From assembly GCF_964213995.1 (NCBI RefSeq), contig NC_135808.1, positions 50,654,001 through 50,718,000 of the forward strand: a DNA stretch of 64,000 bases, in the 5' to 3' direction. A program made the translations under genes and the position numbers. Below the pieces are notes generated by a model. It was given only the letters and a program-made list of their open reading frames with translations. It made no database searches and had not been told where the DNA came from. The stretch is from Mustelus asterias. Its lineage: Eukaryota. This document shows, piece by piece, positions 9,489-49,692 of the stretch (position 1 is the stretch's first letter; each line of letters starts with the position of its first letter).

Positions 9489-9537
9489 ATGATTTCAGCC
9501 ATCCAGCTGCTCTGGCCTCTGGCATTCTGCATCGCAG
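9489..9537 (+). CDS. Ig light chain leader exon L1, cluster 1 (MISAIQLLWPLAFCIA-G)
   Basis: ATG at 9489, hydrophobic signal peptide, phase-1 donor G|GTACA at 9537/9538, TATA box ~65 bp upstream; identical copy in cluster 2. Confidence 0.93.
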
Positions 9538-9723
9538 GTACAAATCTCTCTCCTTCCACCTTGAATATTTTCCTGCTCTCCATTTCAATCCAATTCTCCT
9601 GACTTGTGATTGAAGGGAAAATGCTGAAAGGAGAGGAACAGTCAGTGTCTCCAACAATATGTCATTGTACAGCGTCTTTCTGTGACAGTTCTTACTTCAC
9701 TCTGTTTCTCTATTACCCCTCAG

Positions 9724-10021
9724 GTATCAGTGGAGACATCATCATGACCCAGTCTCCCCCGGTGCTGTCAGTGAGCCTGGGCCAGACCGCCACCATCACC
9801 TGCACGGCCAGTCAATCTGTTAGCAGTTACGTGAGTTGGTATCAACAGCGAGAAGGACAGAAACCGGCTCTGCTGATCTATGCTGCATCAAGTCGATTCA
9901 CAGGAATATCCGACCGATTCACCGGCAGTGGATCTGGGACACAATACACCCTGACAATCAGCAATGTACAGAATGAGGATGTCGCTGATTATTACTGTCA
10001 GTACGGTTACAGCTCCTCCTA
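9724..10021 (+). CDS. IGKV: Ig kappa-type (type III/NS4-like) V exon, cluster 1
   Basis: Acceptor CCCCTCAG| at 9723; encodes [27 protein letters not shown]...WYQQ...LLIY...DVADYYC with canonical Cys/Trp/Cys; followed by a 12-RSS (kappa configuration); strongly resembles nurse shark NS4 as recalled, not searched. Confidence 0.95.
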
Positions 10022-10049
10022 CACAGTGATACAGAGCCTTACAAAAACC
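10022..10049 (+). promoter_or_regulatory. V recombination signal, 12-bp spacer (cluster 1)
   Basis: CACAGTG (10022-10028) + ATACAGAGCCTT (12 nt) + ACAAAAACC (10041-10049); perfect consensus. Confidence 0.98.
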
Positions 10050-10053
10050 CCAA

Positions 10054-10965
10054 CACACACAGCACCACCTCCTGTACTGACACATCCCACAGTTTTATAT
10101 AATATATAATAATGGACACACAGTCCCACCTCCTGTACTGACACATTCCACAGTTTTATATAATATATAATAATGGACACACAGTCCCACCTCCTGTACT
10201 GACACATCCCGCAGTTTTATATAATATATAATAATGGACACACAGCATCACCCCCTGTACTGACACATCCCACAGTTTAATATAATATATAATAATGGAC
10301 ACACAGTCCCACCTCCTGTACTGACACATCCCACAGTTTTATATAATATATAATAATGGACACACAGTCCCACCTCCTGTACTGACACATCCCACAGTTT
10401 TATATAATATATAATAATGGACACACAGTCCCACCTCCTGTACTGACACATCCCACAGTGTTATATAATATATAATAATGGACACACAGTCCCACCTCCT
10501 GTACTGACACATCCCACAGTTTTATATAATATATAATAATGGACACACAGTCCCACCTCCTGTACTGACACATCCCACAGTTTTATATAATATATAATAA
10601 TGGACACACAGTCCCACCTCCTGTACTGACACATCCCACAGTTTTATATAATATATAATAATGGACACACAGTCCCACCTCCTGTACTGACACATCCCAC
10701 AGTTTTATATAATATATAATAATGGACACACAGTCCCACCTCCTGTACTGACACATCCCACAGTTTTATATAATATATAATAATGGACACACAGTCCCAC
10801 CTCCTGTACTGACACATCCCACAGTTTTATATAATATATAATAATGGACACACAGTCCCACCTCCTGTACTGACACATCCCACAGTTTTATATAATATAT
10901 AATAATGGACACACAGTCCCACCTCCTGTACTGACACATCCCACAGTTTTATATAATATATAATA
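10054..10965 (+). repeat. 61-bp minisatellite, ~15 copies, in the V-J interval
   Basis: Unit ACACAGTCCCACCTCCTGTACTGACACATCCCACAGTTTTATATAATATATAATAATGGAC; CCTGTACTGA recurs every 61 bp from 10071 to 10925. Confidence 0.97.
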
Positions 10966-11143
10966 AAGACAAGAAAGGAAACTGGACAAATTATTTGCAC
11001 TGTCCACTACACACTCCAGTCCCTGTGGTGTCCACCGCTCGCTGAAGGCCTCGAGTTTCCCGCTTACTCTCCATGTCCACATATGAAGAGCAGCTGAAAG
11101 ATTCATCATCTCAAATTAGAATTCTCAACTCTCCCGACAAAAC

Positions 11144-11427
11144 NNNNNNNNNNNNNNNNNNNNNNNNNNNNNNNNNNNNNNNNNNNNNNNNNNNNNNNNN
11201 NNNNNNNNNNNNNNNNNNNNNNNNNNNNNNNNNNNNNNNNNNNNNNNNNNNNNNNNNNNNNNNNNNNNNNNNNNNNNNNNNNNNNNNNNNNNNNNNNNNN
11301 NNNNNNNNNNNNNNNNNNNNNNNNNNNNNNNNNNNNNNNNNNNNNNNNNNNNNNNNNNNNNNNNNNNNNNNNNNNNNNNNNNNNNNNNNNNNNNNNNNNN
11401 NNNNNNNNNNNNNNNNNNNNNNNNNNN
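11144..11427. other. Assembly gap (284 N)
   Basis: Run of N. Confidence 1.
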
Positions 11428-11445
11428 AGTGAGGCAGAGAGCAGA

Positions 11446-11484
11446 GGTTTTTGTACAGCTCCTGCACTGGAAGCTGTCAGTGTG
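11446..11484 (-). promoter_or_regulatory. J recombination signal, 23-bp spacer (cluster 1)
   Basis: GGTTTTTGT (11446-11454) + 23 nt + CAGTGTG (11478-11484; one mismatch to CACTGTG, CAC end intact). Confidence 0.95.
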
Positions 11485-11519
11485 CCTTACGTTCGGTAAA
11501 GGAACCAAACTCAGACTGA
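11485..11519 (+). CDS. IGKJ: Ig light chain J segment, cluster 1 (LTFGKGTKLRL)
   Basis: FGxG motif, preceded by the 23-RSS and followed by donor A|GTAAGT at 11519/11520. Confidence 0.95.
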
Positions 11520-12349
11520 GTAAGTAAAGCCCAATCCTCCGTTATTAACCCTTTCAATGCTGAAACTTTCTCAAACACAAATGCTGAATAGTTGAAGGTG
11601 TTGGTGAGGAAGCTGCAGTCAATGAAATGGTTGATTGAAGAACATTGTGTGGAACAGGGAGCCCAGCTGTATTTCTTTCCTTCCATTCCCCCCTTTAAGC
11701 AGCAAGATATAAGTAAGCAGCTTTTACCCACCGTGTGGAGGAGATCTGGACGTTTGCAGACTGTGCTCACATTCCTGCAGCATGGAGTGAAATCACTCTC
11801 TAGGCTCCTGTCAGTCTCAGTGTGACACACACAGGCAGAGTTTGATGTGAAGTCGGACTCCCTGTCACACTCTCTGATATAACTGGTCACAGCACCAGCA
11901 CAGTGAGACACCGAGGTGCCACCTCCCCCAGCTTTCACTCTGCTCTCTCCACTCCCTGCTTATCTCTTGCTAAAGTTCTGATGACAAACAGCTACAGCAG
12001 GGCCCACAATCCAGTGGCTTCAGTGTTCCAGGCTTTTGGAGAGACTCTCAGTTACTTTCTCTCTGGGACGATTTCAGTCCGATATTTATCCCGGATCCAA
12101 CATCACTGAAAATGCTGATTGTTCTCATTGCTGTGAGTGGGATCTTGCTGTGTACATGTTGTGACCAGTCCTCAGACAAGGTCCCTCGTTTGTTAACTTC
12201 CTGAACTCGATCCCAATTTTGTTTTGCTCCTGGGTGAGGAGTAATCAGCTGGAATCCCGCACTCGATTGGTCTCAACAGGGTTCATTTAAAATGGATCCC
12301 TTCACCCGTGGAAACCTTACACAGTCCACATAGTCCTTTATTAGCCTTT

Positions 12350-14140: not shown

Positions 14141-14144
14141 ATTT

Positions 14145-16397: not shown

Positions 16398-16671
16398 AGT
16401 GTTAGAGACAGTCCACAGAGGAGACACAACATGGAATAGAACAGGGGTGAGCTGGGAGGGCAAAGGTCATTGTCAGCACTGAGTTACAACTCTCTTCCTT
16501 CTCGGGACTGAGTCTGAGACACTTCTGAGGGTCAGAGGTTAAAGCACGTTATTGGGATAGTGTAGAGGGAGCTTTACTCTATATCTAACCCCGTGCTGTT
16601 CCTGTCCTGACAGTGTCGACTCGTGATAACAAGTATAACCTCTGGAAGATGCTGAAGAGTGTCAGCTGTAC

Positions 16672-16902
16672 AATAAAAATGTGACCCTGTGAAGTGTCTG
16701 CTTCAGTAAACCAGACCTCCTTCCTGCTCACCCTGCAGTTACAATTGAAGCTTTAGTCACTGTTTAAAGGGACAGGATTCTCATGTTATTGAGAAAATCT
16801 CCACAAGTGTTTTAATAAACCTCCATTCTCCCTGTGAATTTCTCCAGCTTCCTCTGGCTGGGCTGTTTTTTCTGTCAATGTCAATGTGTAAAAGGTAATA
16901 AA
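16672..16902 (+). terminator. Candidate polyadenylation signals, cluster 1
   Basis: AATAAA at 16672, 16814 and 16897; the last is followed by a GT/T-rich stretch; the distal two are conserved in cluster 2. Confidence 0.6.
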
Positions 16903-18239
16903 CATTAAGAATATTCCGTTTCTGTCTGGTGAGTGCTTTGGAAATGTCCCACCTCCCCATCAGCTGATTGGCTGCATTTCACCAAATGATTGTCCGGATT
17001 GGCTGCTTGGCCTGTCAATCAAAGACACATCTGCAGAAGATTGGATTCAAAGCCAATGATCATTCATTTGAAAATGATCAGTTTGATCTGGAATCTCTTG
17101 AGTGACAAGATTGAAAACAGAGAAGAAACTGAAAGTTGCTGGGATTAAACCATCACAATCACAATTCTCCACCCCATATTCACCACCTGCCTCTTGACCT
17201 TAACCATCTCACGTGGTCTCACTGCTCCCATAGTTTCAATCAGAGATAAGACCATCTCTGATTACTTCCTTGTATCACTCCCCAGCCACATCCCCCTTCC
17301 ACACCCCCAACCCTACCCCCTTCTGTATCCATCCCTGCAAAAACCTATTCCCCAATTCACTTACAACGCACTTTCCAAATTCCAACTATCTTAAATTTCA
17401 TTTTACCAGAAGCCAGTTGATTCTCAGACTAGCTGAGCAGAGAGACAACCCCTTTGTTTCTCCACACCCAACTCTTCCAGCTGTGTCCATTGATCATTGA
17501 GCCAATGATCATCACTTGTCTTTATCAATCTAATTGGATGAACAATATAAATATCAAAGGTTGCAATTGCTAGCGCATTGACAAGGGCTGAGTTGGTGAA
17601 AATGCCAGTTTGGAAACAGGGAGGGATGGGAGCACAGTAAGAATGTTACAGGACTGTTAATCCTGAGGGTTTTTCTGGGAGGTATGGGTTCAAATCCCAT
17701 TATGGCACTGGGAGGAATTTGAATTCTTTCCATTTCAGGATACTGGTGTTCGACAAGGCAATATGCTGTGGTCCTCAAACTGTTGAGAAAGTGTAATATC
17801 TTCAGCCCGCTTTCTTTAAAGAGAACACATTTAAATGAACCAAAACCATCATAAATCCTGCATTGACACAAAGCAAAACATGTCTTTTTCCTTTATAACA
17901 TCCCAACATAATTTGTAATTTCTAGGAACAGACATGTTTATCTGTAAAGCAGTTTGATAATTAGTGACTTGTGTTAAGTCTTTGTATCTTTGAGATCTCC
18001 CTTCTCTTGAACATTGTGTTTCTGTGAACGAAATCTATTCTTGGCCTTTTTCAGCTGCATTATCTTGGAGAGGACATTATCCCACAGAGATCACTGAGTG
18101 CTTTTCACAACTCTTTTACTCTTCTTGGATTCTCAAACTAAAGTGTAACATTTCGTATTCTTTCCCACCAAGAATCTGATGAACCCTGCGCTGCTCAAAA
18201 ACCGACCCAGAAGATTGGCATATGAAGCATCACTAAATC

Positions 18240-19560
18240 TTACATAGAAACATGGAAACTAGGAGGAGGAGGGGGCCATTCGGCCCTTCGAGCCTGCTCC
18301 ACCATTCATTATGATCATGGCTGATCATCCAACTCAACAGCCTTCCCCTGTGTATCCTTTGATTCCCCCTCCAACTCAAATGCTTTATCTAACTGAACCA
18401 GGAACAATACAGCACAGGAACAGGCCCTTCAGCCCACCAAGCCTGCGCCGATCACATTGTCCTATCTAGACCAAGCCCCTATATCCCTCTATACCCCACC
18501 TGTTCATGTTTCTATCTAGGAAAGTATTAAATATCGCTAACGTAACTGCCTTAACCATCTCACTTGGCAGTGCATTCCAGGCCACCACCACCCTCTGTGT
18601 AAAAATACTTCCCCTGCACATCTCTACTGAACCTTTCCCCCCTGACCCTGAACTTGTGCCCCTTGTAATTGTCATTTCTACCCAGGGAAAAAGCTTCCAA
18701 CTCTTCACCTTATCTATGCCCCTCATTATTGTATAAACTTCTATCAGGTCCCCCTCAACCTCCATCTTTCCTGGGAGAACAGTCCCAGTTTATTCAATCT
18801 CTCCTCAAAGCTAATGCCCTCCATACCAGGCAACATACTGGTAAACCTTGTCTGTCCTCCCCCGAAAGCCACCATGAACTTCCAGTAGTGTGGCAACCAG
18901 AATTGAACAGAGTATTCCCAATGTGACCTAACCAACATTTTCTATAACTGGAACATAATTTGCCAACTTTTATCCTCGATGCCCCAGCCGATGAAGGCAA
19001 GCACGTCATATGCTTTCTTCATCAGATTTCCACCTGTGCTGCCACTTTTAAGGATCTGTGGACCTGTACTCCCAGATCTCTCTGTGTGTCTCTGCTCCTG
19101 ATGGTTCTGCCATTTATTTTATAGCTCCCACCTGAATTGCATCTACCAAAATGCATCATCTTGCATTGGGCTGGATTAAATTCTACCTGTCAATTCTCCA
19201 CCCAATTTTCCAGCCTATCTGTATCCTGCTGTTTTCTCTGACAATCTTCATCACTATCCGCAACTCCAGCAATCTTAATATCATCAGCAAACTTGTTAAT
19301 CAGACCAACTATATTTTCTTGCAAGTCACTTGTATATATTACAAACAATAGAAGTCCCAGCACTAATCCCTGTTCAAGACCACTAGTTACAGACTGCTTC
19401 TTGAAAGCATGCAACGTTTTGGCCTCAACTGCTTTCTGTGGTAGCAAATTCCACAGGCTGACCACGCTCTGGGTGAAGAAATTTCTCCTCATCTCTGTCC
19501 TAAACGCTCCATCCTTAATCCACAGACTATAAGCCCTGGTTCTAGACACCATCGGGTATA
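18240..19560 (-). mobile_element. Nested degenerate CR1 fragments
   Basis: ORFs 18466-18765, 18744-18938 and 19190-19552 with CR1 RT motifs; two different tails. Confidence 0.8.
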
Positions 19561-20145
19561 TCCTTCCTGCATCTTACCAATCTCATATCATCTGGTTCAC
19601 CCAGGGTTGGGAACTTGAGTGTGCATTTCGCCAAGTTTAGTTCCTTCAATGTTTTGTTTGCTCTCAGAGCTTCCCCTCTCTCCTGCCATGCTTCATCATG
19701 TACTCTGCTCCAACACCTCACAACTGGCATCAGGTCTGGTCTGAGTACACAACCAGGTCAACTGTCCAATCAAACTTCTCCAAGGATCCGTTTCTTCCTT
19801 GGACACTGGATCCTCTTTTTGTGAGGATCTGACCCGATTTATTGGATGGGATTATCATTTCCCAAATGATTGTCGGTTCAATGTCACACCTGACTTCTTT
19901 TGCTTCATGTTTTAACCGATGTGTTTAAAATCTCCTGAAGCCTGGCTTCCAACCTGGAATTCCTTCTTGATTTCATTGATTATCCATTGATCAAATTCAA
20001 CAAAACCTCCCCACAGAAAATCACCCACATTGATGATAAAGATTCCTGCTGCTCTCTCCTTGTGACACCAATAGAACATCGCAGAGTCTGCTTTCATCTG
20101 GAAACAACCCATTTTCAACAGGGCCGACCTCAGAGAGAAATACCA

Positions 20146-20965
20146 AGAACAAAGAAATTACATCACAGGAACAGGCCCTTCAACCCTCCAAGCCCGCACC
20201 GACCATGCTGCCCGACTTAACTAAAACCCCTCCCCTTCCGGGGACCATATCCCTCTATTCCCATCCTATTCATGTACTTGTCAAGACGCCCCTTAAAAGT
20301 CACTACCATATCCGCTTCCACTCCCTCCCCCGGCAACGGGTTCCAGGCACCCACCACTCACTGTGTAAAAAATCTGCTTCGTACATCTCCTTTAAACCTT
20401 GCCCCTCGCACTTTAAACCTGAGTATTTTACTCTTTTATCCTGGGAAAAACCTTCTGAATATCAACTCTGTCCATGCCTCTCATAATCTTGTAGACTTCT
20501 ATCAGGTCTCCCCTCAACCTCCGTCGCTCCATGAGAGCAAACCAAGTTTCTCCAACCTCTCCTCATAGCTAATGCCCTCCATACCAGGCAACATCCTGGT
20601 AAATCTTTTCTGTATCCTCTCCAAAGCCTCCACATCCTTCTGGTGGTGTGGCAACCAGAATTAAACATGAAATTCCAAGTGCGACCTCACTAAGGTTCTA
20701 TAAAGCTGCAACATGACTTGCCAATTTTTTAACTCAATACCCCGGCCGATGAAGGCAAGCATGCCGTATGCCTTCTTGATTACCTTCTCCACCTGCATTG
20801 CCACTTTCAGTGACCTGTGTACCTGTACACCCAGATCCCTTTGCCTATCAATACTCTTAAGGGTTCTGCCATTTACTGTATATTTCCTATCTGTATTAGA
20901 CCTTCCAAAATGCATTACCTCACATTTGTCCGGATTAAACTCCAACTGCCATCTCATATTCATAA
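20146..20965 (-). mobile_element. CR1 3' fragment
   Basis: ORF 20661-20963 (EFNPDKCEVMHFG) and CR1 tail. Confidence 0.85.
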
Positions 20966-21149
20966 TGCGGACGACACAAAGGTTGGTGGATTTGTGGATA
21001 GTTCATAATCCCCTATTCATAATACATCATTCAATCCATAAACACCTGTTTAATTTCACAATTTTCTTTCTCGTTAACAGGCTTCTTTAGATGCTTCAAA
21101 ATATTTCCCTTTGAAATTTCTCACCCCACAAAAATGCTGCATTTAAATC

Positions 21150-21505
21150 TTAGAATCCCTACAGTGCAGAAAGAGGCCATTCAGCCCATTGAGTCTGCAC
21201 TGACTCTCCGAAAGAGCATCTTATCCAGGCCCACCCCTCTAACCCTATCCCCATAACCCCATACATTTACTATGGCTAAATGACCAAACCTGCACATCTT
21301 TGGACACCAAGGGCAATTTAGCATGACCAATCCACCAAACCTGCATATTTTCGGACTGTGGGAGGAAACCAGAGCATCCGGGGGAAATCCACGCAGACAT
21401 AGGAAGAACGTGCAAACTTCGCACAGAGGGTGACCCAAGACCGGAATGGAACCCAGGTCCCTGGCGCTGTGAGGCACCAGTGCAAACCAATGTGCCACAG
21501 TCCCA
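21150..21505 (-). mobile_element. V-SINE (HE1-like)
   Basis: tRNA-like head, V-domain, CR1-like tail. Confidence 0.85.
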
Positions 21506-22253
21506 TCTCAATCTGCACTTCCAGGAGTATGTCACTAAAGTGGCGAAAAATATCTTCAAGCTTACTTTCCCGACAGTTGGGGATTCCACCCTGAGAATTT
21601 GATCCACAAGTCTCTCCTCAAATTCCCGAGTTCCCAGTCTAGCTTTAGCCTTTCAAGTGTTGTTAGGGAGAGATGTTTCTGTACATATCCACTGTGAGTC
21701 AAGTCTGACTGTCTCCTATCTGATATTTTAGTGGAAACTTCAAATTCTCTCCAACTCCTTTTGTTTTGCTTCCTTTATCAACTTATCTTTCAATTGATTA
21801 GCAACTATTAAAACCTTTCTATACGGAAGGCTTCTGCTTCTGGTGACATTCAAACTTAATCCACAGTTCCTTTTCTTATCATGCTCTGACCTCTACTCTT
21901 CCCCTCTCTCTATCTGGCACATATAGGCAATTCTGTGGATGCGAAAGAGACTCCAGGATGGTATGTTGCCTCACTGGTGCCAGGGTCCAGGATATCTTTG
22001 AACGGGCAGGGAGCATTCTGAAGGAGGAGGCTGAACAACCAGAGGTCGTGGTACATATTGTAACTGACGACATAGGTAGTGACATAGTCACGATGACTAT
22101 GGGTCAAATCATCTTTCCCACATGTGATCAGATTCCTGATTCCAAGTTCATGATCTTTTCCTGGGATCACGACCTCTTTCTGTTTCAGAACTTACAGTGA
22201 GCTTCCTGGCTTTTCCCATCCTGACCTTATTTCCCAATCCACTGCCCGGATTT

Positions 22254-22680
22254 AGAACAAAGAACAAAAGAAAATTACAGCACAGGAACAGACTCTTCGG
22301 CCCTCCAAGCCTGCACCGACCATGCTGCCGTCTGAACTAAAACCCCCTACCCTTCTTGGGACCATATCCCTCTATTCCCATTCTATTCATGTATTTGTCA
22401 AGACCCTTAAAAGTCACTATCGTATCTGCTTCCACTCCATCCCCCAGTAGCGAGTTCCAGGCATCCACCACCCTCTGTTTAAAAAAAGTTGCCTCGAACA
22501 TCTCCTTTAAACCTTGCCCCTTGCACCTTAAACCTATGCCCCCTAGTAATTGACACTTCCACCTTGGGAAAAAGCTTCTGACTAATCATTCTGCCCATGC
22601 CCCTCATAATCTTGTAGACTTCTATCAGGTCGCCCTCAACCTCTGTCGTTCCAATGAGAACAAACCACGGTCCTCCAATC
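22254..22680 (-). mobile_element. CR1 3' fragment
   Basis: GTTCTTT tail at 22254-22270 and RT C-terminal remnant. Confidence 0.8.
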
Positions 22681-23069
22681 CAAGCTCGAAGTTCATCTGC
22701 CTTACCCGTTACACATCTCGCATTGAAACAAATGCTCTTCAGTTCACCAGACCCTCTTTGATCAGCAACCCCACCCTGCCCCCTCTTTCACTGAGTCTCA
22801 CTGGCCCGACTCTCTCATTCCCCTTCGGTCAATTCACCTTTGCTTCAGTACCCCCCCCCCCCCCAGCCCCCCCCCCCCCGCCCCCCCCCCCCCCCCGCCC
22901 CCCCCACCCACCCCCCCTCCCACGTGGCACTCGCAAACCTACAGGCCAGAATATTTACACCCCTCCAGTTTAGACGCAACCCGTCCTTCTTGTACTGGTC
23001 ACACCTGTCCTGGAAGAGATCCCAATGGTCCAGATATCTGAAACTCTCCCTCCTACACCAGCTGTTCAG

Positions 23070-24799
23070 CTGCGTGGAGCCTGAAGAGATAGGAGAGGCG
23101 CTAAATGAATATTTTTCATCAGTATTCACGCAGGAAAAAGACAATGTTGTCGAGGAGAATACTGAGATACAGGCTGTTGGACTGGACGGGATTGAGGTTA
23201 ATAAGGAGGAGGTGTTAGCAATTCTGGAAAGTGTGAAAATAGATAGGTCCCCTGCGCCGGATGGGATTTATCCCAGGATTCTCTGGGAGACTAGGGAAGA
23301 GATTGCAGAGCCTTTGGCTTTGATCTTTATGTCGTCATTGTCTACAGGAATAGTGCCAGAAGACTGGAAGATAGCAAATGTTTTCCCCTTGTTCAAGAAG
23401 GGGAGTAGAGACAACCCTGGTAATTATAGACCAGTGAGCCTTACTTCTGTTGTGGGCAAAGTTTTGGAAAGGATTATAAGAGATAGGATTTATAATCATC
23501 TAGAAAGGAATAATTTGATTAGGGATAGTCAGCACGGTTTTGTGAAGGGTAGGTCGTGCCTCACAAACCTTATTGAGTTCTTTGAGAAGGTGACCAAAGA
23601 GGTGGATGAGGGCAAAGCAGTTGATGTGGTGTATATGGATTTCAGTAAAGCATTTGATAAGGTTCCCCATGGTAAGCTTTTGCAGAAGATACGGAGGCAT
23701 GGGATTGAGGGTGATTTCGTGGTTTGGATCAGGAATTGGCGAGCTGTAAGAAGACAGAGGGTGGTGGTTGATGGAAAATGTTCATCCTGGAGTTCAGTTA
23801 CTAGTGGTGTACCGCAAGGATCTGTTTTGGGGCCACTGCTGTTTGTCATTTTTATAAATGACCTGGATGAGGGCGTAGAAGGATGGGTTAGTAAATTTGT
23901 GGACGACACTAAAGTTGGTGGAGTTGTGGACAGTGCGGAAGGTTGTTGCAGGTTACAGAGGGACATAGATAAGCTGCAGAGCTGGGCTGAGAGGTGGCAA
24001 ATAGAGTTCAATGCAGAAAAGTGTGAGGTGATTCACTTTGAAAGGAGTAACAGGGTTACAGAGTACTGGGCTAATGGTAAGATACTTGGTAGTGTGGATG
24101 AACAGAGAGATCTGGGTGTCCATGTGCATAGATCCCTGAAAGTTGGCACCCAGGTTGATAGGGTTGTTAAGAAGGCGTACGGAGTGTTAGCTTTTATTGG
24201 TAGAGGGATTGAGTTTCAGAGCCAGGAGGTCATGTTGCAGCTGTACAAAAGTCTGGTGCGGCCGCACTTGGTGTATTGCATACAGTTCTGGTCACCGCAT
24301 TATAGGAAGGATGTGGAAGCATTGGAAAGGGTGCAGAGGAGATTTACGAGGATGTTGCCTGGTATGGTGGGAAGGTCTTATGAGGAAAGGCTGAGGGACT
24401 TGAGGTTGTTCTCGTTAGAGAGAAGAAGGTTAAGAGGTGACTTAATAGAGGCATACAAGATGATCAGAGGATTAGATAGGGTGGATGGTGAGAGCCTTTT
24501 TCCCCGGATGGTGATGGCTAGCATGAGGGGACATAGCTTTAAATTGAGGGGTGATAGATACAGGACAGATGTCAGAGGTAGATTCTTTACTCAGAGAGTA
24601 GTAAGGGCATGGAATGCCCTGCCTGCAGCAGTAGTGGACTTGCCAACATTAAGGGCATTTAAATGGTCATTGGATAAACATATGGATGATATTGGAATAG
24701 TGTAGGTCAGATTGGCTTTAGATTGGTTTCATTGGTCGGCGCAACATCGAGGGCCGAAGGGCCTGTACTGCGCTGTAATGTTCTATGTTCTATGTTCTA
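23070..24799 (+). mobile_element. Young 5'-truncated CR1 with open RT frame
   Basis: ORF to 24705 with PDGIYPR, NYRPVSLTS, YMDFSKAFDKV, KFVDD; (GTTCTAT)n tail. Confidence 0.95.
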
Positions 24800-25530
24800 C
24801 GTGTTGAGCTGTACTATCTTCCTATTTCTAGCTTCACTGGCACATGGCACAGGGAGTAATCCTGAGATTACAACCCTCGGGACCCTGCTTTTTAACTTTC
24901 TACCTAACTCCCTAAACTGCTGCTGCAGGACCTCGTCACTCTTCCTGCCGATGTCGTTAGTACCAATACGTACCACAACCTCTGGTTGTTCAGCCCCTCC
25001 CTTCAGAATGCTCTCTCCCGTTCAAAGATATCCTGACCCTGGCACCAGGGAGGCAACATACCATCCTGGAGTCTCTTTTACGTCCACAGAATTGCCTATC
25101 CGTACCCCTAACTATAGCGTCCCCGATAACTATTGCTCTCGTGTTCTTTATCCCTCCCTGCCTAGCAACAGAGCCAGCCATGGTGCCACTGCTCTGGCTG
25201 CTGCTGCTGTTATCCCTGATAGGCCATCCCCCCAACAATATCCAAAATGGCAGACTTGTTAGAGAGGGGATCGACCACAGGGAATTCCTGCACTGAATGC
25301 CTGCCCCTTCTAGCGGTCACCCATCTATCTGCCTGCACCTTGGGTGTCACCACATCATTAAAACTCCTGCCTATGATGCTTTCCGCCATCTTCATGCTCC
25401 TAAGTGCATCCAACTGCTGCTCCAACCTATCCATGTGGTCTGTGAGGAGCTGCAATTGGGTGCACTTCCAGCAGATGTAGTCGTCCGAGACGCTGGAAGC
25501 CTCACGGATCTCCCACATCTCCCAAGTGCC
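24800..25530 (-). mobile_element. Older CR1 ORF1 (zinc finger plus SGNH esterase), continuing at 22920-23065
   Basis: YICWKC, IVIGDAIVR, MVCCLPGARV and DGLRLNWRG motifs; split by the young CR1. Confidence 0.8.
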
Positions 25531-25849
25531 AGCATTTGACCGACATTTCTATCACCAATTAAATTATTGAAGAAAATTTATTAAACTCTGACCTTCACTT
25601 CTCACATGAGGTTGGTCTTCTTGTTACTTACTTTCCCAGGATACTCTCTGGATTTCTCCCTGCAGAATAACAGTTACGAAGCAAGAAGAAAGAAAACAGA
25701 ACAGAAAGGGAAAACAGCATCTCCTCCCACTCTGCACTGAATTACCGCACTGTTCCAAATGGCCAAGTTTCAATCCCACTCTGGCTGCCTCAGTCACGCT
25801 GTCTCCCATTTCAAGTGCGCAAAGCTCTGATTTCCGGACCTTCCCTTTT

Positions 25850-26468
25850 GAATTCATTTTTACATGATGTGGGGATCGCTGGCTTGGCCAACATTTATTA
25901 CCCATCCCTATTTGCCCGTGAGCTGCCTTCTTGAACCGCTGCAGTCCATGAGGTGTAGGTACATCCACAATGCTGTTAGGGAGGGAGTTTGAGGATTTTG
26001 ACCCAGTGACAGTGAAGAAAGGGCGATATATTTCCAAGTCAGGATGGTGAATGAGTTGGTGGGGAATCTCCAGGTGATGGTGTCCCAGGTGTCTGCTGCC
26101 CTTGTCCTTCTAGGTGGTAGTGCTTGTGTGTTTGGAAGGTGCTGTCGAAGGAGACTTGGTGAGTTCCTGCAGTGTATCTTGTAGATGGTACACACGGCTG
26201 TCACTGTTCATTGGTGGTGGAGGGTTTGTGGAAGGGGTAACAATCAAGCGGGGCTGCTTTGTCCTGATGGTGTCTAGTTTCTAGAGTGTTGTTGGAGCTG
26301 CATTCATCGAGACAAGTGGAGAGTTTCCTTCACACTTGTGTCTTGTAGATGGTGGACAGGCCTTGGGGGTCAGGAGGTGAGCATCTCACTGCAGGATTCC
26401 TAGTCTCTGACCTGTTCTTGGAGCCACAGTTTTTCTATGGCTCACCCAGTTCAGTATCTGGTCAATGA
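25850..26468 (-). mobile_element. 3' fragment of the L2/Jockey-group-like LINE; host of the ERV
   Basis: Homologous to 4500-5130. Confidence 0.8.
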
Positions 26469-27144: not shown

Positions 27145-27146
27145 AA

Positions 27147-33477: not shown

Positions 33478-35000
33478 TATGTGGATAGGCCGACAAGAGG
33501 TGAGGCCACATTGGATTTGGTGCTGGGAAATGAACCAGGCCAAGTGTTAGATTTGGTTGTGGGAGAGCACTTTGGAGATAGTGACCAACAATTCGGTGTC
33601 TTTTGTTATTGCAATGGAGAGGGATAGGGCCATATGGCAGGGCAAGGTTTACAATTGGGGGAGAGGTAATTATGATGCGATTAGGCAAGAATTAGGGGGC
33701 ATAAGATGGGAACAGAAACTGTCAGGGAAAGGCACTAATGAAAAGTGGAACTTTTTGAAGGAACAAATACTGGGTGTCCTTGATAGGTATGTCCCTGTCA
33801 GGCAGGGAGGAAATGGCTGAGTGATGTCATATACATGGATTTTAGTAAGGCGTTTGATAAGGTCCCCCATGGTCGGCTTATGATGAAAGTAAGGAGGTGT
33901 GGGATAGAGGGAAAGTTGGCCGATTGGATAGGTAACTGGCTATCTGATCGAAGACAGAGGGTGGTGGTGGATGGAAAATTTTCGGACTGGAGGCAGGTTG
34001 CTAGCGGAGTGCCGAAGGGATCAGTGCTTGGCCCTCTGCTCTTTGCGATTTTTATTAATGACTTAGAGGAGGGGGCTGAAGGGTGGATCAGTAAATTTGC
34101 TGATGACACCAAGATTGGTGGAGTAGTGGATGAGGTGGAGGGCTGTTGTAGGCTGCAAAGAGACGTAGATAGGATGCAAAGCTGGGCTGAAAAATGGCAA
34201 ATGGAGTTTAACCCTGATAAATGTGAGGTGATTCATTTTTCTAGGACTAATTTAAATGTGGATTACAGGGTCAAAGGTAGGGTTCTGAAGAATGTGGAGG
34301 AACAGAGAGATCTTGGGGTCCATATCCACAGATCTCTAAAGGTTGCCACTCAAGTGGATAGAGCTGTGAAGAAGGCCTATAGTGTGTTAGCTTTTATTAA
34401 CAGGGGGTTGGAGTTTAAGAGCCGTGGGGTTATGCTGCAACTGTACAGGACCTTGGTGAGACCACATTTGGAATATTGTGTGCAGTTCTGGTCACCTCAC
34501 TATAAGAAGGATGTGGAAGCGCTGGAAAGAGTGCAGAGGAGATTTACCAGGATGCTGCCTGGTTTGGAGGGTAGGTCTTATGAGGAAAGGTTGAGGGAGC
34601 TCGGGCTGTTCTCTCTGGAGCGGAGGAGGCTGAGCGGAGACTTAATAGAGGTTTGTAAAATGATGAAGGGGATAGATAGAGTGAACGTTCAAAGACTATT
34701 TCCTCGGGTGGATGGAGCTATTACAAGGGGGCATAACTATAGGGTTCATGGTGGGAGATATAGGAAGGATATCAGAGGTAGGTTCTTTACGCAGAGAGTG
34801 GTTGGGGTGTGGAATGGACTGCCTGCAGTGACAGTGGAGTCAGACACTTTAGGAACATTTAAGCGGTTATTGGATAGGCACATGGAGCACACCAGGATGA
34901 TGGGGAGTGGGATAGCTTGATCTTGGTTTCAGATAAAGCTCGGCACAACATTGTGGGCCAAAGGGCCTGTTCTGTGCTGTACTGTTCTATGTTCTATGTT
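33478..35000 (+). mobile_element. CR1 with an internal deletion (EN region fused to RT at ~33821)
   Basis: LDLVLGNEPG/SD piece followed by ORF 33835-34920; GTTCTAT tail. Confidence 0.9.
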
Positions 35001-35984
35001 TAATCGTAGTTCTGATTACCCCAAGTTACAGCAGGAGATTAACCTCAGTTGTTAATACAAATAAAGATGTTGTCCTTGAGTATTTTTGAACACCATGAAT
35101 TGTTGGAACTTGTGTTACCAGTTAGTTATTTTTAAATGACATGATTAATAATATGAAATTTGTGATGTTCCGATAACATGCAACAAATTACATAATTTAA
35201 ACCATCTCACATTGATGATAGTTCTGTAAAATTATATACTGCCGTTGGAATTGCGTGTGCCATCTATTGTTCAAGGTTTTCCAGATGTAAAAACACTGCA
35301 AAGCTTAAAACCTAGCCAGCTTGGAATCAAACCAAAACATTTCTAATCAAGTAACAATTGTTATTGTTATATGTATTGTGCTTGTTATTGTTCTAAAATG
35401 CAGGGATTCTGATCTGGAGCAGTTCAAAAATAAAAACGACTTAAATTAAGAGGGTTTGGATATACCCAAGAGAATCAAATCCTGGAGAGCCTTAACCAAT
35501 TTTATATGTTGATATATATTGTGTATTGATACAACATAATTCTGTGGAAGAAAAGGCTATTTATTCCAAACATTTAACCATTCTTTGCCATAATTTGTAA
35601 TAATTTGCACAATTAACATTAACATGAGAGGAAGTGAAACCGGATTACAAGGGAAAGAGAGAGAGAGAGAGAAAGAGTTGGTGACTGGCCTTACAACCAG
35701 ACTCAAAAATCTTGCAGCATTCGACTGGACACAACAGATAGCTCATTCGGTTATCTGTGTTTTTAAAGAGCTGTGTCTGGCTCAGTGACCACGTAACACT
35801 GTTGTTTACCTCATGAGACAATCTGTCTATAGAGGGATCATTTCTGCTCAAACAAATGATCATATTAGATATAATGTAAGATACATCATACAAAGATCGG
35901 AGCTGTATAGTATATGATTTTAAGTACACTAAGCTCTCTATGCAAGGGGGGTATGTAGTTAAATGTATAATGCACTGGCTTTTG

Positions 35985-36420
35985 TGGCCAAAGGTATTGC
36001 CCACCATACTAATGAGATTAAGGGTTGCCACAAACCAAACAACCGGATTAACCCCTTATAAGCTAATGACAGGACAGGCGATGCAATTACTAGAAAGCAC
36101 CATAACAGGTGGGACTGATGTAGGTCCACTAAAAGATAAAATCAGGAGATATGTTTTGGAACTAAGCACCCAACTAAAAGGGATGCGTAAATTGGTAAAA
36201 GACAATTAGGAGATAAGAGACACACAGAGAGAGAGCTTGAAATGCTCCCTGACATCCCAACAGCGGGACGTCCGAGTGAAAACACTACCTGACAAATCAG
36301 GGTTTGTACTAAAATGGGATGAGCCGTATGAAGTTATAATTAGTGAAGATACCTGTGCCTGCATAGACATAAGGGGGAAAGGTCATTAAACTCAGTTGAA
36401 AGAATATGCTGAAACTAATT
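35985..36420 (+). pseudogene. Second, diverged ERV integrase C-terminal fragment
   Basis: VLPTILMRLR..TNQTTGLTPY.LMTG.AMQL...GGTDVGPLKDKIRRYVLELS aligns to 31760-32200. Confidence 0.85.
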
Positions 36421-36567
36421 GGGAAATTATGTGATATCCTCCCATTGCAGGAATGTACAGACAATAACCAACCTCCAAGCAAGCTGAACTGGTGCGCGGT
36501 GTTTCGCGCGGGCGGTAGCCTTTGGACCGTTGTATAACGGTCGCGCGGGTTATTAGTAAGTGATAAG

Positions 36568-36864
36568 ATGTTTTTCATGTTACTTCTCACGACCCTGGCC
36601 CTGTTAGCTATAGTGGGAAAGTATAGATGGAATTATGAGAATTTGGGGATGGGACACAGTGAACATCTCTGTGACGATGACTCTGTCTATTGTATGAACA
36701 CCTTTGTGTATATATCTTATCTCTATGCATCACAATCGAATTTGAGCAAGTGCTGGGTCTGTTCACACATTCCCACGCACGGAGGAAAGGGAGGAATTCC
36801 TTTATTCCCTATCCCTTTATCAGCTCCAGATACACAATATCGGGACCTCTCAGGCCAGTTCTGA
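36568..36864 (+). pseudogene. env: ERV env N-terminal fragment (gamma-type)
   Basis: Signal-peptide-like MFFMLLLTTLALLAIVG, then NLSKCWVCSHIP (CxxC), just downstream of an IN end. Confidence 0.7.
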
Positions 36865-37604
36865 CGTTATCAGTAAAAACAGAACTGTTATACATTTTCT
36901 TAATCTGATTCTCCGCCTTACATTAGTTTAAAATTAATTTCATTTAATGTCCATATGTTAACATAAATTATTGCCAAATGCCTCAGCTAACCACTTAGTA
37001 CTTTCCAGCATGATGGTTTCTCATTCGTCCATTACAACCGGACATTACTCACTTGTTGGCTAAAGCTATTTCCCTGTTGCCTGGATGCGGTAGATGCTAC
37101 CGTAAGGGTCAAAGTGGAGGTTCCTACCAGCTCACTGCCAAGCTGAATAGACATGTGTTGCTGCATCCAGGGTCATGTCTATTCTATGTCTGGGCTGTGA
37201 ATTGATTTAAACATTATGTTGCACAATGTGTTCCCTCATCGGGATCTCCCAGATATGAGTTTGCAAACTAATGGGTTCCCAGGCCTTTGGCTCGAAACAT
37301 TTTACCTTTCCCACCATACCTTTCAGTACCTTGCATTGGCCAAAGTGTACAATCACAGTAAAATACTTGAAATACATTCAGAATATCAACTTCTATGTCT
37401 TAAAATCATAGTTGTTTTAATTCTCTTACTGCGCTCACATGTGGGTACGTTATCATTTAACTCCTTACTGTTCGCTCTGCCAGTGCTTGTACTCTCTCTA
37501 AAAATGAAGTGAAATGTAAAATAATCCCTTTCATCTCCCCATGGGGCTTGGTCTCAGATTGTTCTTGTGAAGCACGTGAATACAAGTTGTATTATATTGG
37601 CAGT

Positions 37605-38270
37605 TGTGTGTGTGGTGTGTGTGATGCCTCCCATGTTTGATGAGCTGGGAATTGTGTGTGTGTGTGTGTTTTCGTGTGTGTGTGTGTTTTCGTGTGTGTG
37701 TGTTTTCGTGTGTGTGTGTTTTCGTGTGTGTGTGTGTTTTCGTGTGTGTGTGTGTTTTCGTGTGTGTGTGTGCGTCTGGGTGTGTGTGTGTTTTCGTGTG
37801 TCTGGGTGTGTGTGTGTGTTTTCGTGTGTGTGTGTGTTTTCGTGTGTGTGTGTGTTTTCATGTGTGTGTGTGTTTTCGTGTGTGTGTGTGTTTTCGTGCG
37901 TGTGTGTGTGCGTCTGGGTGTGTGTGTGTTTTCGTGTGTCTGGGTGTGTGTGTGTGTTTTCGTGTGTGTGTGTGTTTTCGTGTGTGTGTGTGTTTTCGTG
38001 TGTGTGTGTGTTTTTGTGCGTGTGTGTGTGTGTGTGCGTCTGGGTGTGTGTGTGTTTTCGTGTGTCTGGGTGTGTGTGTGTGTTTTCGTGTGTGTGTGTG
38101 TTTTGTGTGTGTGTGTACGTCTGTGGGTGTGTGTGTGCGTGTGTGTTTTCGTGTGTGTGTGTGTTCATATGTGAGTGTGTGTGTGATGCCACCTGTTGTT
38201 GATGAGCTGGGAGTTGTGATGCCTCCTACGATCGATGAGCTAGGAATTGTGTGTGTGTGTGTGTGGTGCC
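37605..38270. repeat. Compound (GT)n-TTTTC microsatellite
   Basis: (GT)4-7 TTTTC blocks with GCGTCTGG variants, bracketed by repeated GATGCC...GATGAGCTGGGA motifs. Confidence 0.97.
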
Positions 38271-38833
38271 TCCTGTGATTGATGAGGCAAATGCTTTCGG
38301 GGGTAAGGGGGGGTAAGATGGCACGGGGGTGGGTGAGGGTTCGGATGCATTGTGGCTTGGGGTGAGTTTGAGATTGGGGGATATTGTGAAGGGCAGGTCA
38401 GGTCACGGGGTGGTTGGTGTTTTGGTGCTGCCAATCGGTCAGGTGGGTATTCAGGAAGGTGAGGGGATCAGACAGGGGACATGTTTCAGTTTTACACTGA
38501 CCCCGGTGTTGGAACTGCTCTGAATCGTTCTAACTTTTCCTGGGTAACTATCCTGGGCAGTAAGTCAGAAACATCTGAATTCTCCAGATTTCAGTCCGAG
38601 ATTCAGAGAGTTCCAGACTCAGGGGAATTCCCCATATAGATCCGGGATACGACCATCCGGAGATTGGAAGTTCTGGGTCAGGAGCTCAGACCAACCAAAG
38701 ATGAGATAAAGAGGTGGACAATGAGAGTTTGAAAGGATCAAAGTGAGTTGGAGAGGTGGAGGGGGTTATGGAGGGAATTCCAGAGCTTGGAACCCAGGCA
38801 GCTGAAGGCTTGGCCACCAATGGTGGAGACATT

Positions 38834-40140
38834 GGGCCTGATTTTACCATTTTCATTCCAAGTGCTGAATCTGGGCGCAATTCAGATCCGACTGAGAAAT
38901 CTGCTTTCAGGCGCCCCCCATACACACCCAGCTTGATTAAAAAAACCGCGGGTCCCATTCGTGGTGTGTGCGGGGCTTAGCGCGCCCGAAACGATCGGAG
39001 CTCTGAACTGCGCATGCGCAGTTGGAAACAAATGTGAAAAAGTGTGCCCAAGTCAGATCGCTCCCGGACCGCAGAAAGCGGAGAAAGTGGCTCGGGAGCG
39101 AAAAGAGGGAGCGTTGGCCCCCACAGACATCACTGTCCCCCTTATCAACCCCCCCCCACTACCCAGACCGATCGTGACTCCTGCCCTCTTCCCCCCCCCC
39201 ACCGATCACCCGCAGAGTGGCAGCGGACTCCCCTGCCCCCCTCCCCTGCCCCACCAGAGATCCATCTGCGCCCCCCCCTGACCAGTGCCCCCCCCTGACC
39301 AGTGAGCGATCGGGCCTCCCCCCCCCTCTTCACCAGAGACACATCTTACCCGCCTCCCTCCTCCCCCCCCATCTCAGCGAATGATCAGGCCTCACTCCCC
39401 CCACCCAGAGGAACATCTGACCCGCCTCCTCCTCCCTCCCCACCAGACAATGATCAGCCCTCCCCGCCCTCCCCACCACCAGACAACGATCGGGCCTCCC
39501 TCCACCCCCTCCCCATCTCCCCACCAGAGATACATCTGACCCGCCTCCTCCTCCTTCCACCCCCCCTCCCCCCCGCCAAACCAGACAACGATTGGGCCTC
39601 CCTCCCCCCCACCCCGCCCCCCACTCCCCACCAGAGATACATCTGACCCATGTCCTCCTCCTGCGCCCCCTCCCCACCCCCCACCCCCAACCAGACAACG
39701 ATCTGGCCTCACTCCCCTCCCCCCACCCCCCCAACCAGAGAATGTTCTGACCTGCCTCCCTCCTCCCCCCCACCACCGATCTGAGTCAGGGAGCCGCTGG
39801 AAGCTCTGAACTCGCTCTTCAGCAGCTGGAGCGCCCGATTCAGACTTTTATTCAGCATGTCCGTTTCGGCGCGATTCCGGGTCGGCGAACGTGGCGGTAA
39901 AGGGGGAAATGCTGATAAAGGTGGGCGGGCAGTTCATTAATTCAATTGAAATACATGCAAATACATTTAAATCACCGTTGTGCCCATTTCGGGTGCGAAG
40001 CGGATTGCCACCATTCCCGGGTTTCGGTAAAGTAGCCATCTGCGCGGGCGCGGGCGTGGATCGCGTTAATGGCCTCACACCCGACTTTACCACGTTTTCC
40101 CACCCAAAAACGGGCGCGACGCAATGGTAAAATAGGGCCC
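38834..40140. mobile_element. Non-autonomous PIF/Harbinger-like DNA transposon
   Basis: 18-bp TIRs GGGCCTGATTTTACCATT / AATGGTAAAATAGGGCCC (16/18 match), 3-bp TSD ATT at 38831 and 40141, inserted in a LINE remnant. Confidence 0.8.
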
Positions 40141-41750
40141 ATTATGATCAGGAATGTACAAGAGGCCAGGATTAGAGGAACACAGATATCTCGAAGGGTT
40201 GTGGGGCTAGAGGAGATTCCAGAGAGAGGGAGGGAGTGAGGACATGGAGGGATTTGAAAACAAGGATGAGAAGTTTAAAATCAAGACATTGCTTGATCAG
40301 GAGCCAGTGTAGGCCAGTGAGCACAGGGGGTGATAGGGGAACGGGACTTGGTGTGAGTTCAGACTGGGACAGCAGAGTTTGGGATGAGCTGATGTGTGCG
40401 GAGGGTGGAATGTGGGAGAACGGCCAGGAGTGTATTGGGATAGTCATGTCTAGAGGAACAAAGGCTTTTTCAGCAGCAGATGGACTGAGAACAGCAGGTA
40501 GCTCTCATGGACAAGATGAGCTCAGAGAAGCCATGAGGGGGGATTGGAGAGAAACTAGAGAAAGATTTGAGTTCAGGGCTCGGGCGGGGGAGGGGGGGGG
40601 GGATGGTGGGGTGCGTGGGGGCGGGGGAGGTAGAATTAGAGGATGTTTGTCCAGATGGTGAGAGGAAGGAAGGGACGTGGCAGAGGCAGCTGATTGGATT
40701 GTCTCAATCTTAGTCACAAAGACCTCGGTGAGATCCTCACACTTGTTGCTGGAGGTGAGGGGGGAGGGGACAGGGGAGAGGGGTTTAAGAAGTTGGTCTG
40801 CAGTTGGGAAAAGAAGCCGGAGCTTATCTTCTCATTCCAGGATGATCCTGGAATAGTCAGCAGTTTTAGCAGATGAGAGTAGGAGCCGGAAGTGTTTGAA
40901 GTGCTCCAGCCAGATCAGCCAGTGGATGGATGAACCAGTTGTCCACCAGATCCTTTCAAGTCTGTGTCCCTGGGATGAAGTGAGTGGAGATGAGGCCGGA
41001 GCAGGGGGAACGGCCGGGGGGAGAGGGAATCATGGTTTTATTGGGGATTAGGATATCAAAGGTGGGGGTGAGGGGGAGCCAATCAGTCGCTGCAGAAATG
41101 TTGTGGTGATCGGAGGGCCAGAGACTCGATAGTTGGGATTTGGAAAGTGCGGTTGTAAGTGAATGGACACAGCTGGAAGAGTTGGGTGAGGAGAAACAAA
41201 GGGGTTGCCTCCCCACAGAGCTGGTCTGAGAATCAACTGGCTTCTGGTAAAATGAAATTTAAGATAGATGGAACTTGGAAAGTGCGGTTGTAAGTGGATT
41301 GGGGAATAGGTTTTTGCAGGGATGGATACAGAAGGGGGTAGGGTTGGGGTGTGGAAGGGGGATGTGGCTGGGGAGTGATACAAGGAAGTGATCAGAGATG
41401 GTCTGATCTCTGATTGAAACTATGGGAGCAGTGAGACCACGTGAGATGGTTAAGGTCAAGGGGGAGGTGGTGAATATGGGGTGGAGAATTGTGATTGTGA
41501 TGGTTTAATCCCAGCAACTTTCAGTTTCTTTTCTGTTTTCAATCTTGTCACTCAAGAGATTCCAGATCAAACTGATCATTTTCAAATGAATGATCATTGG
41601 CTTTGAATCCAATCTTCTGCAGATGTGTCATTGATTGACAGACCAAGCAGCCAATCAGGACAATCACTTGGTGAAATGCAGCCAATCAGCTGATGGGGAG
41701 GTGGGACGTTTCCAAAGCACTCACCAGACAGAAACGGAATATTCTTAATG

Positions 41751-41839
41751 TTTATTACCTTTTACACATTGACATTGACAGAAAAAACAGCCCAGCCAGA
41801 GGAAGCTGGAGAAATTCACAGGGAGAATGGAGGTTTATT
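41751..41839 (-). terminator. Candidate polyadenylation signals, cluster 2
   Basis: TTTATT at 41751 and 41834; the proximal cluster 1 signal reads AATAAT here. Confidence 0.6.
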
Positions 41840-42271
41840 AAAACACTTGTGGAGATTTTCTCAATAACATGAGAATCCTGTCCCTTTAAACAGTGACTAA
41901 AGCTTCAATTGTAACTGCAGGGTGAGCAGGAAGGAGGTCTGGTTTACTGAAGCAGACACTTCACAGGGTCACATTATTATTGTACAGCTGACACTCTTCA
42001 GCATCTTCCAGAGGTTGTACTTGTTATCACGAGTCTGCACTGTCCCCATCAAACTCTCCCAGGACAGTAACACCACAGGGTTAAATACAAAGTAAAGCTT
42101 CCTCTACACTATACCAATAACGTGCTTTAACCCCTGACCCTCAGAAGTGTCTCAGACCCAGTCCCGAGGAGGAAGAGAGTTGTAATTCAATGCTGATAAT
42201 GACCTTTGCCCTCCCAGCTCACCCCTGTTCTATTTCAAGTTGTGCCTCCTCTGTGGACTGTCTCTAACACT

Positions 42272-48412: not shown

Positions 48413-48447
48413 TCAGTCTGAGTTTGGTTCCTTTACCGAACGTAAGG
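48413..48447 (-). CDS. IGKJ: Ig light chain J segment, cluster 2
   Basis: Identical to J1 (LTFGKGTKLRL); GTAAGT donor at 48412. Confidence 0.95.
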
Positions 48448-48486
48448 CACACTGACAGCTTCCAGTGCAGGAGCTGTACAAAAACC
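48448..48486 (+). promoter_or_regulatory. J recombination signal, 23-bp spacer (cluster 2)
   Basis: CACACTG (48448-48454) + 23 nt + ACAAAAACC (48478-48486). Confidence 0.95.
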
Positions 48487-48520
48487 TCTGCTCTCTGCCT
48501 CACTCACTCACTCACTCATC

Positions 48521-48708
48521 NNNNNNNNNNNNNNNNNNNNNNNNNNNNNNNNNNNNNNNNNNNNNNNNNNNNNNNNNNNNNNNNNNNNNNNNNNNNNNNN
48601 NNNNNNNNNNNNNNNNNNNNNNNNNNNNNNNNNNNNNNNNNNNNNNNNNNNNNNNNNNNNNNNNNNNNNNNNNNNNNNNNNNNNNNNNNNNNNNNNNNNN
48701 NNNNNNNN
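48521..48708. other. Assembly gap (188 N), paralogous position to the first gap
   Basis: Run of N next to a (TCAC)n microsatellite at ~48500-48518. Confidence 1.
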
Positions 48709-48886
48709 GTTTTGTTGGGAGAGTTGAGAATTCTAATTTGAGATGATAAATCTTTCAGCTGCTCTTCATATGTGGACATGGAGAGTAAGAGGGAAACTCG
48801 AGGCCTTCAGCGAGCGGTGGACACCACAGGGACTGGAGTGTGTAGTGGACACTGCAAATAATTTGTCCAGTTTCCTTTCTTGTCTT

Positions 48887-49127
48887 TATTATATATTATA
48901 TAAAACTGTGGGATGTGTCAGTACAGGAGGTGGGACTGTGTGTCCATTATTATATATTATATAAAACTGTGGGATGTGTCAGTACAGGAGGTGGGACTGT
49001 GTGTCCATTATTATATATTATATAAAACTGTGGGATGTGTCAGTACAGGAGGTGGGACTGTGTGTCCATTATTATATATTATATAAAACTGTGGGATGTG
49101 TCAGTACAGGAGGTGGTGCTGTGTGTA
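48887..49127 (-). repeat. 61-bp minisatellite, ~4 copies, in the cluster 2 V-J interval
   Basis: Same unit as 10054-10965, reverse complement. Confidence 0.95.
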
Positions 49128-49131
49128 TTGG

Positions 49132-49159
49132 GGTTTTTGTAAGGCTCTGTATCACTGTG
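49132..49159 (-). promoter_or_regulatory. V recombination signal, 12-bp spacer (cluster 2)
   Basis: Read on +: GGTTTTTGT (49132-49140) + 12 nt + CACTGTG (49153-49159). Confidence 0.98.
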
Positions 49160-49457
49160 CTGGAGGAGCTGTAACCGTACTGACAGTAATAATCAGCGAC
49201 ATCCTCATTCTGTACATTGCTGATTGTCAGGGTGAATCTTGTCCCAGATCCACTGCCGGTGAATCGGTCGGATATTCCTGTGAATCGATTTGTTGCATAG
49301 TAGATCAGCAGAGCCGGTTTCTGTCCTTCTCGCTGTTGATACCAATGCACGTTATTGCTAGCAGATTGACTGGCCGTACAGGTGATGGTGGCGGTCTGGC
49401 CCAGGCTCACTGACAGCACCGGGGGAGACTGGGTCATGATGATGTCTCCACTGATAC
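49160..49457 (-). CDS. IGKV: Ig kappa-type V exon, cluster 2
   Basis: 298 nt like V1; [38 protein letters not shown]...YYATNRF...[10 protein letters not shown]; intact acceptor and RSS. Confidence 0.95.
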
Positions 49458-49643
49458 CTGAGGAGTAATAGAGAAACAGAGTGAAGTAAGAACTGTCACA
49501 GAAAGACGCTGTACAATGAGATATTGTTGGAGACACTGACTGTTCCTCTCCTTTCAGCATTTTCCCTTCAATCACAAGTCAGGAGAATTGGATTGAAATG
49601 GAGAGCAGGAAAATATTCAAGGTGGAAGGAGAGAGATTTGTAC

Positions 49644-49692
49644 CTGCGATGCAGAATGCCAGAGGCCAGAGCAGCTGGATGGCTGAAATCAT
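49644..49692 (-). CDS. Ig light chain leader exon L1, cluster 2
   Basis: Reverse complement of the cluster 1 leader; ATG at 49692, donor at 49643. Confidence 0.93.

Follow-up and report, generated by a model that had tools for sequence, protein, structure and literature searches.

Reviews describe V(D)J joining, the assembly of variable (V), diversity (D) and joining (J) segments, as staying within the cluster in sharks, and tie this to distant loci that run in the same direction (PMC5192425, PMC12227049, PMC8355894). Consistent with this, 96 of 97 partial rearrangements of nurse-shark immunoglobulin (Ig) heavy-chain (IgH) genes lay within a minilocus, with loci at least 120 kb apart (PMC2435157), and horn-shark cDNA is intracluster (PMC2191167). 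An origin of D segments from intercluster signal joints has been proposed in PMC2193153, whose available part lists coding and hybrid joints only as evidence in sharks. Here we analyze a 64,000-nucleotide stretch of the Mustelus asterias genome (the window; C8:50,654,001-50,718,000 of a 3.68-Gb genome, C8 being NC_135808.1) that holds two complete light-chain clusters, each with a leader (L), V, J and constant (C) exon, arranged tail to tail. An earlier note had proposed that the recombinase RAG could invert the interval between the two clusters, making them a two-cluster cassette. Judged from sequence, these are kappa clusters of the ordinary kind; what is unusual is the alternating, tightly packed array to which they belong, which holds one likely record of RAG joining between clusters.

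Genome searches for close relatives of the window's genes, which give lower bounds, returned at least 18 V (83-100%), at least 22 C (96-100%) and at least 21 J, all within C8:50.17-51.09 Mb. We read 1.05 Mb around these matches and numbered the units K1-K22, the window pair being K14 (cluster 1) and K15 (cluster 2). The 22 kappa units extend over 920 kb and mostly alternate in strand: K1-K16 do so strictly, with inter-unit gaps of 26-33 kb, and the units after them run +, +, -, + (a lone C), -, +, the alternation being broken at K16-K18. All 21 J of the array are identical, the 22 C exons comprise 19 alleles and 12 proteins, and the array has no gap other than masked runs. Three clusters, K4, K10 and K12, have leader, J and C and lack both V and its 12-bp-spacer recombination signal sequence (12-RSS); their J-C could serve a foreign V only and would be a clean reporter of joining between clusters. 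These V-less clusters lie at L016:2258-3420, L046:2665-4070 and C8:50507935-50509090, and in the two that were read the leader intron passes directly into minisatellite at the same point.

The window clusters are, by their sequence, kappa (NS4-like) light-chain units. Three NS4 primers match them at 16/18, 16/17 and 17/18 positions, and their leader intron is 186 bp, equal to the NS4 length (primers and intron, PMC2193156); NS4 is of kappa isotype (PMC5192425). Since they also encode V-set and C1-set domains, the isotype call stands on these features. Searches of the PDB matched mammalian antibodies and UrIg2 only and gave no isotype call. As in nurse shark NS4 and horn shark type III, each unit carries a single V, a single J and a single C, with a 12-RSS at V and a 23-RSS at J split in the germline, as in a shark kappa minilocus. 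The locus differs from these genes in that its linkage is resolved, with 22 units 26-69 kb apart and mostly alternating, and in that a minisatellite widens the V-J interval; germline-joined VJ number 0 among 21 J here versus approximately 10% of NS4 genes. In our literature search, neither an alternating kappa array in sharks nor a germline shark Ig signal joint was found described, a result that does not establish absence from print, and the supplementary coordinates of PMC12227049 may list the locus.

The earlier note had suggested looking for a chromosomally retained signal joint. One exists, outside the window, and its flanks point to same-strand partners rather than to facing clusters. 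The joint sits in K7, approximately 250 kb to the left of the window, at C8:50402777/8 (L028:2738-2816). There the heptamers of a 23-RSS and a 12-RSS meet head to head, with 0 bases lost or added, creating GTGCAC, an ApaLI site; such an exact fusion of 12-RSS and 23-RSS heptamers is the mark of a RAG signal joint. The cluster reads V, 12-RSS, 628 nt, the fused 23-RSS and 12-RSS, 1,425 nt, 23-RSS and J, and obeys the 12/23 rule on both sides. Two genome-wide pattern searches, one of which allowed up to 12 inserted bases, found this fusion as the only match in the assembly and 0 in a reversed control; exact-match patterns of this kind miss variant signals. Germline RAG products in sharks, namely joined VJ or VDJ and one hybrid joint, resemble K7 in being precise RAG-type junctions in assembled Ig cluster DNA; K7 differs in being a signal joint whose flanks come from two clusters.

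The two sides of the K7 joint have different kin. A 19,432-bp block with 99.6% identity to K11 and K13 starts at the joint; on this V side, K7 differs from K11 at 2/5000 sites and from K13 at 12/5000, and the first V-J interval is identical to its K11 counterpart over the full 628 nt. On the J side we counted 136 sites differing from K11 in ten 500-bp tiles, against 25/5999 between K11 and K13, and the second interval, of 1,425 nt, has its own repeat variants. The V side carries 47 private sites in 19.4 kb and the J side is close to no other cluster. K13 is farther from K11 than K7 is, and K11 and K13 share the unjoined state; on this basis K7 is a derived and recent chimera.

Based on this structure, the most likely origin of the exact joint in K7 is RAG joining between two clusters on the same strand. 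RAG would have brought a J signal from a K11-like cluster together with a V signal from a same-strand cluster, either the next one along or one farther on; the fused signal ends would then have stayed in the chromosome, and the coding joint would have departed with the excised piece. An equivalent exchange between chromatids would give the same outcome. The product would be a complete cluster running from V and its 12-RSS through the joint to 23-RSS, J and C, a V-D-J layout with a zero-length D, and the alternation would be kept. RAG activity in germ cells is established for the NS4 isotype in nurse shark (PMC2193156). Both spacers flanking K7 are in standard orientation and no reciprocal coding joint is present in the assembly, where 21/21 J keep their 23-RSS and 18/18 V their 12-RSS; the partners would therefore have been on the same strand.

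Three other origins of the K7 joint were considered and set aside. Inversion predicts the K7 layout plus an inverted spacer and a joined VJ at its other end, neither of which is present, and a second, reversing event would be needed. Against duplication by chromatid exchange, the C side of K7 lacks a K11-like V. A simple V-J circle that re-entered, with nothing further, should leave flanks of single ancestry, which were not seen.

If the proposed origin is correct and the joint is inherited, the within-cluster rule would have a physical exception in this intercluster signal joint, and K7 would be a real example of the D-segment route proposed in PMC2193153. Joining of the K7 type also bears on how cluster loci could become translocons, and the tightly packed alternating array makes the within-cluster rule directly testable. 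Should the K7 joint prove not to be inherited, and joining prove local, the locus would be a duplicated kappa array of the ordinary kind.

The array contains large direct copies (52.8 kb at 99.6%, 41 kb at 99.5% and 26 kb at 99.5%), and K8-K9 share 34 kb at 98.3% with the window pair. With the window's spacers as probes, spacers among K1-K16 were collinear in 7/7 tail-to-tail and 8/8 head-to-head cases, all 15/15 holding a single orientation, and the tail-to-tail spacers of the seven pairs are 95-99% alike. We infer that alternation is a by-product of block duplication: one old inverted duplication would have been followed by tandem copying of the two-cluster block. Since the same tail-to-tail spacer recurs collinearly, a local scaffolding error, a possibility raised in the earlier note, is unlikely to have produced the inverted layout. 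A binomial figure for the alternation (19 strand switches in 21) was dropped, as the copies are not independent.

The window pair is not a privileged unit of this array, because K14 is nearer to K8 than to K15. It differs from K8 by 0.1-0.3% and from K15 by 2.4-5.3% (J intron, C region and V), and on the other side of both K14 and K15 lies an opposite-strand neighbor that is no farther away (28-36 kb). A special K14-K15 partnership was sought in four alignments and not seen. The proposed cassette is thus 2 of the 22 units, and the four V/C combinations promised for it mean little, the J being equal and C1 being separated from C2 by 7 nt and 4 residues.

Exchange between arms also appears to occur without RAG. 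In K14 (window 11485-16900) and in K8 the J-to-C stretch is of minus-strand type, nearest to K7, K11 and K13, with plus-type flanks, and likely reflects arm-to-arm conversion. In K16 a K2-like V side meets a J-C side of minus type, both signals being intact; K16-K18 with their spacers are inverted relative to the rest (C8:50731000-50860000; L056-L068). Together these cases show that V and C are reshuffled between opposite arms in the germline, likely by homologous exchange. The left break of the inverted K16-K18 segment lies in the K16 V-J interval and its right break was not located; a partner cluster is missing between K16 and K17 and between K17 and K18.

The recombination geometry on which the earlier note built holds up. 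Joining follows the 12/23 rule, and RSS pairs in the same orientation join by inversion. A signal scan at the chosen stringency found four RSSs in the window, at the places and in the directions that had been reported, versus 0 in each of 200 shuffles; they are near consensus and would permit inversional joining between V1 and J2. The V1 and J2 signals, a same-direction pair in different clusters within the approximately 80 kb considered, are 38,426 bp (38.4 kb) apart and those of V2 and J1 37,675 bp, against 1,463 bp within cluster 1 and 712 bp within cluster 2. Across the array, 18 V and 21 J allow 378 V-J pairings, of which 190 are inversional and 18 local; the deletional ones comprise 80 that would keep the coding joint and 90 that would keep the signal joint. 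The distance from a V to its own J is 0.6-4 kb and to the nearest foreign J 28-46 kb, head-to-head neighbors offering inversional partners at 28-36 kb. As the own J is so much nearer than any foreign J, we infer that somatic joining is mostly local. Inversion between facing clusters would be allowed by the same chemistry, and in our analysis it is neither shown nor needed.

Zebrafish light-chain genes, like the array, have closely linked clusters, kappa-type 12/23 signals and opposite-strand V within tens of kb; there, V is often inverted within its cluster and cDNA shows the joins, while here whole clusters are inverted and each V faces its own J (PMC3014032). Mammalian Igk shares near-consensus 12/23 signals and a geometry in which about half of the pairings are inversional; it differs in having a single J-C unit, with CTCF-based Cer/Sis folding in mouse (PMC11153149), whereas here a local J competes for each V.

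Taking these results together, the account we consider probable is that the facing genes are the 14th and 15th of 22 units in a mostly alternating array, likely built by tandem copying of an inverted two-cluster block, that each V would normally join its own J, and that the K7 joint reflects rare RAG joining between same-strand clusters. We think it unlikely that B cells make inversional V-J joins between facing clusters at a meaningful rate and that the alternating order is kept for that purpose. Its appeal is that geometry and signals permit it for half of all pairings, over distances within the 81 kb spanned by inter-cluster inversion in zebrafish (PMC3014032), that strong kappa signals support inversional joining in mouse (PMC11153149), that RAG, to judge from K7, may be able to bring together signals of separate clusters in this array, and that the three V-less clusters keep J-C usable by a foreign V only. 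Yet the assembly contains no coding joint and, among K1-K16, no inverted spacer, so that the product of a V1-J2 inversion is absent from it; identical J and near-identical C make the gain in diversity small; block duplication explains an alternation that is in any case broken at K16-K18; and a second light-chain array, on C13, has long same-strand runs instead of alternation. No public RNA run contained more than 0.17 of the query words. A broader reading, in which the kappa locus is one recombining array where RAG pairs signals across clusters by inversion and deletion in germ and B cells alike, and K7 is a fresh, inherited V-(empty D)-J cluster, the predicted intermediate in the origin of D segments, able to rearrange in two steps via its internal joint, we regard as possible and rather doubtful.

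The K7 joint could also have begun within a cluster, by re-entry of an excision circle through homology or by sister-chromatid exchange, a later crossover then swapping the V side with no cluster-to-cluster joining at all. Homologous exchange is common in the array, as the minus-type stretch of K14 and the joint-free change of ancestry in K16 attest, and it is the main reason this alternative stays open; the C-proximal 3 kb of K7 is also near K11. Such a crossover would need to lie within the final tens of bases ahead of the joint, given that all 628 nt match K11 and the 99.6% block begins at the joint, and the two intervals differ in length, which together make this history quite improbable. 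Shark blood and spleen cells rearrange these genes. This single assembly might contain a joint that is not inherited, brought in by a read from a lymphocyte or by misjoining in a difficult repeat region with near-identical blocks of 20-53 kb. We consider this very unlikely: a base-exact heptamer fusion is atypical of a misjoin, masked runs are the array's sole gaps, the V side has its 47 private sites, and the J side has no close match in another cluster; a somatic read would, moreover, still show joining between clusters.

Several observations weigh against joining between same-strand clusters as the origin of K7, or against the local joining that we propose beside it. The 3 kb around the K7 C differ from K11 and K13 at only 23/3000 sites and no cluster matches throughout, which makes the J side a mosaic rather than cleanly foreign. 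The donor cluster of the second interval was not found intact, and the event cannot be rebuilt from both parents. A homologous crossover near an older within-cluster joint could mimic the chimera, since arms exchange without RAG in K14 and K16. The joint rests on one assembly: among 20 listed public runs, 4, all from one study, held half of the query words or more, and the joint was bridged in 0/4 contig sets, a result that is uninformative at a summed depth of 14-46 at the signals for approximately 20 paralogues and with uncertain kinship of the organism. The 12-RSS side of the joint had depth 0 in one of these four sets. The assembler may have placed haplotype copies in tandem as the array blocks at 99.5%; the unit count would then be lower and the timing argument weaker. 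As for local joining, the claim was drawn from IgH loci that are more widely spaced rather than from the present one, and mouse kappa genes do undergo inversional joining over long range when signals are strong (PMC11153149).

The window clusters have open reading frames for L, V, J and C, and their arms are inverted copies with 95.6-97.3% identity around the genes. J1 equals J2 across 41 nt. A masked run lies inside each V-J interval, where letters are not readable. Feature coordinates are collected in the table.

Table. Light-chain features of the window, in window coordinates
Feature	Position	Strand	Remark
Leader exon, cluster 1 (K14)	9489..9537	+	186-bp intron follows
V1 exon, open	9724..10021	+	Pfam V-set, E 9e-18
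12-RSS of V1, full consensus	10022..10049	+	CACAGTG-12-ACAAAAACC, from 10022
61-bp minisatellite in V-J interval, approximately 15 units	10055..10966	+	
23-RSS of J1	11446..11484	-	heptamer CACACTG, from 11484
J1	11485..11519	+	same as J2
C1 exon to stop codon	16069..16397	+	Pfam C1-set, E 1e-23
Tail-to-tail spacer, approximately 26 kb	16398..42271	.	retroelement remains; six other pairs have collinear spacers
C2 exon to stop codon	42272..42600	-	only C of 22 with RDN
J2	48413..48447	-	
23-RSS of J2	48448..48486	+	CACACTG-23-ACAAAAACC, from 48448
61-bp minisatellite, cluster 2, approximately 4 units	48886..49126	-	
12-RSS of V2, full consensus	49132..49159	-	from 49159
V2 exon, open	49160..49457	-	
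Leader exon, cluster 2 (K15)	49644..49692	-	

The V and C peptide markers that had been put forward for linking V to C in transcripts are all present in the window clusters, and only some would serve. AASS, SASNNVH, YATN and RDN are unique, RDN being the only one of the eight C markers confined to one of the 22 C exons. The others are shared: PDQ is common to K8 and K14, the C1 protein being identical to the K8 C, and REN, ANH, PDE, VRR, ADH, VSR and SVSSYVS occur in 4 to 21 units each (SVSSYVS in 4/18 V).

Further features were seen in and around the array. The V exons of K2 and K16 have a first complementarity-determining region reading GISNDCD, with a cysteine, and F instead of Y after the conserved W. 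The lone C exon, at L080:7573-7897 (C8:50977573), is intact, with approximately 440 bp of upstream intron homology and no J, V or leader found. Two large satellite blocks lie at C8:50124300-50134900, just left of the array, and at 51042100-51071500, between K21 and K22. The second light-chain-like array, at C13:60.05-61.42 Mb, holds approximately 28 C-like exons with 41-48% identity to the window C. Within the tail-to-tail spacer of the window, retroelement reading frames occupy 22795-24702, 29386-31727 and 33787-34917, reverse transcriptase being encoded at three sites, and RNase H and integrase at 30258-31727.

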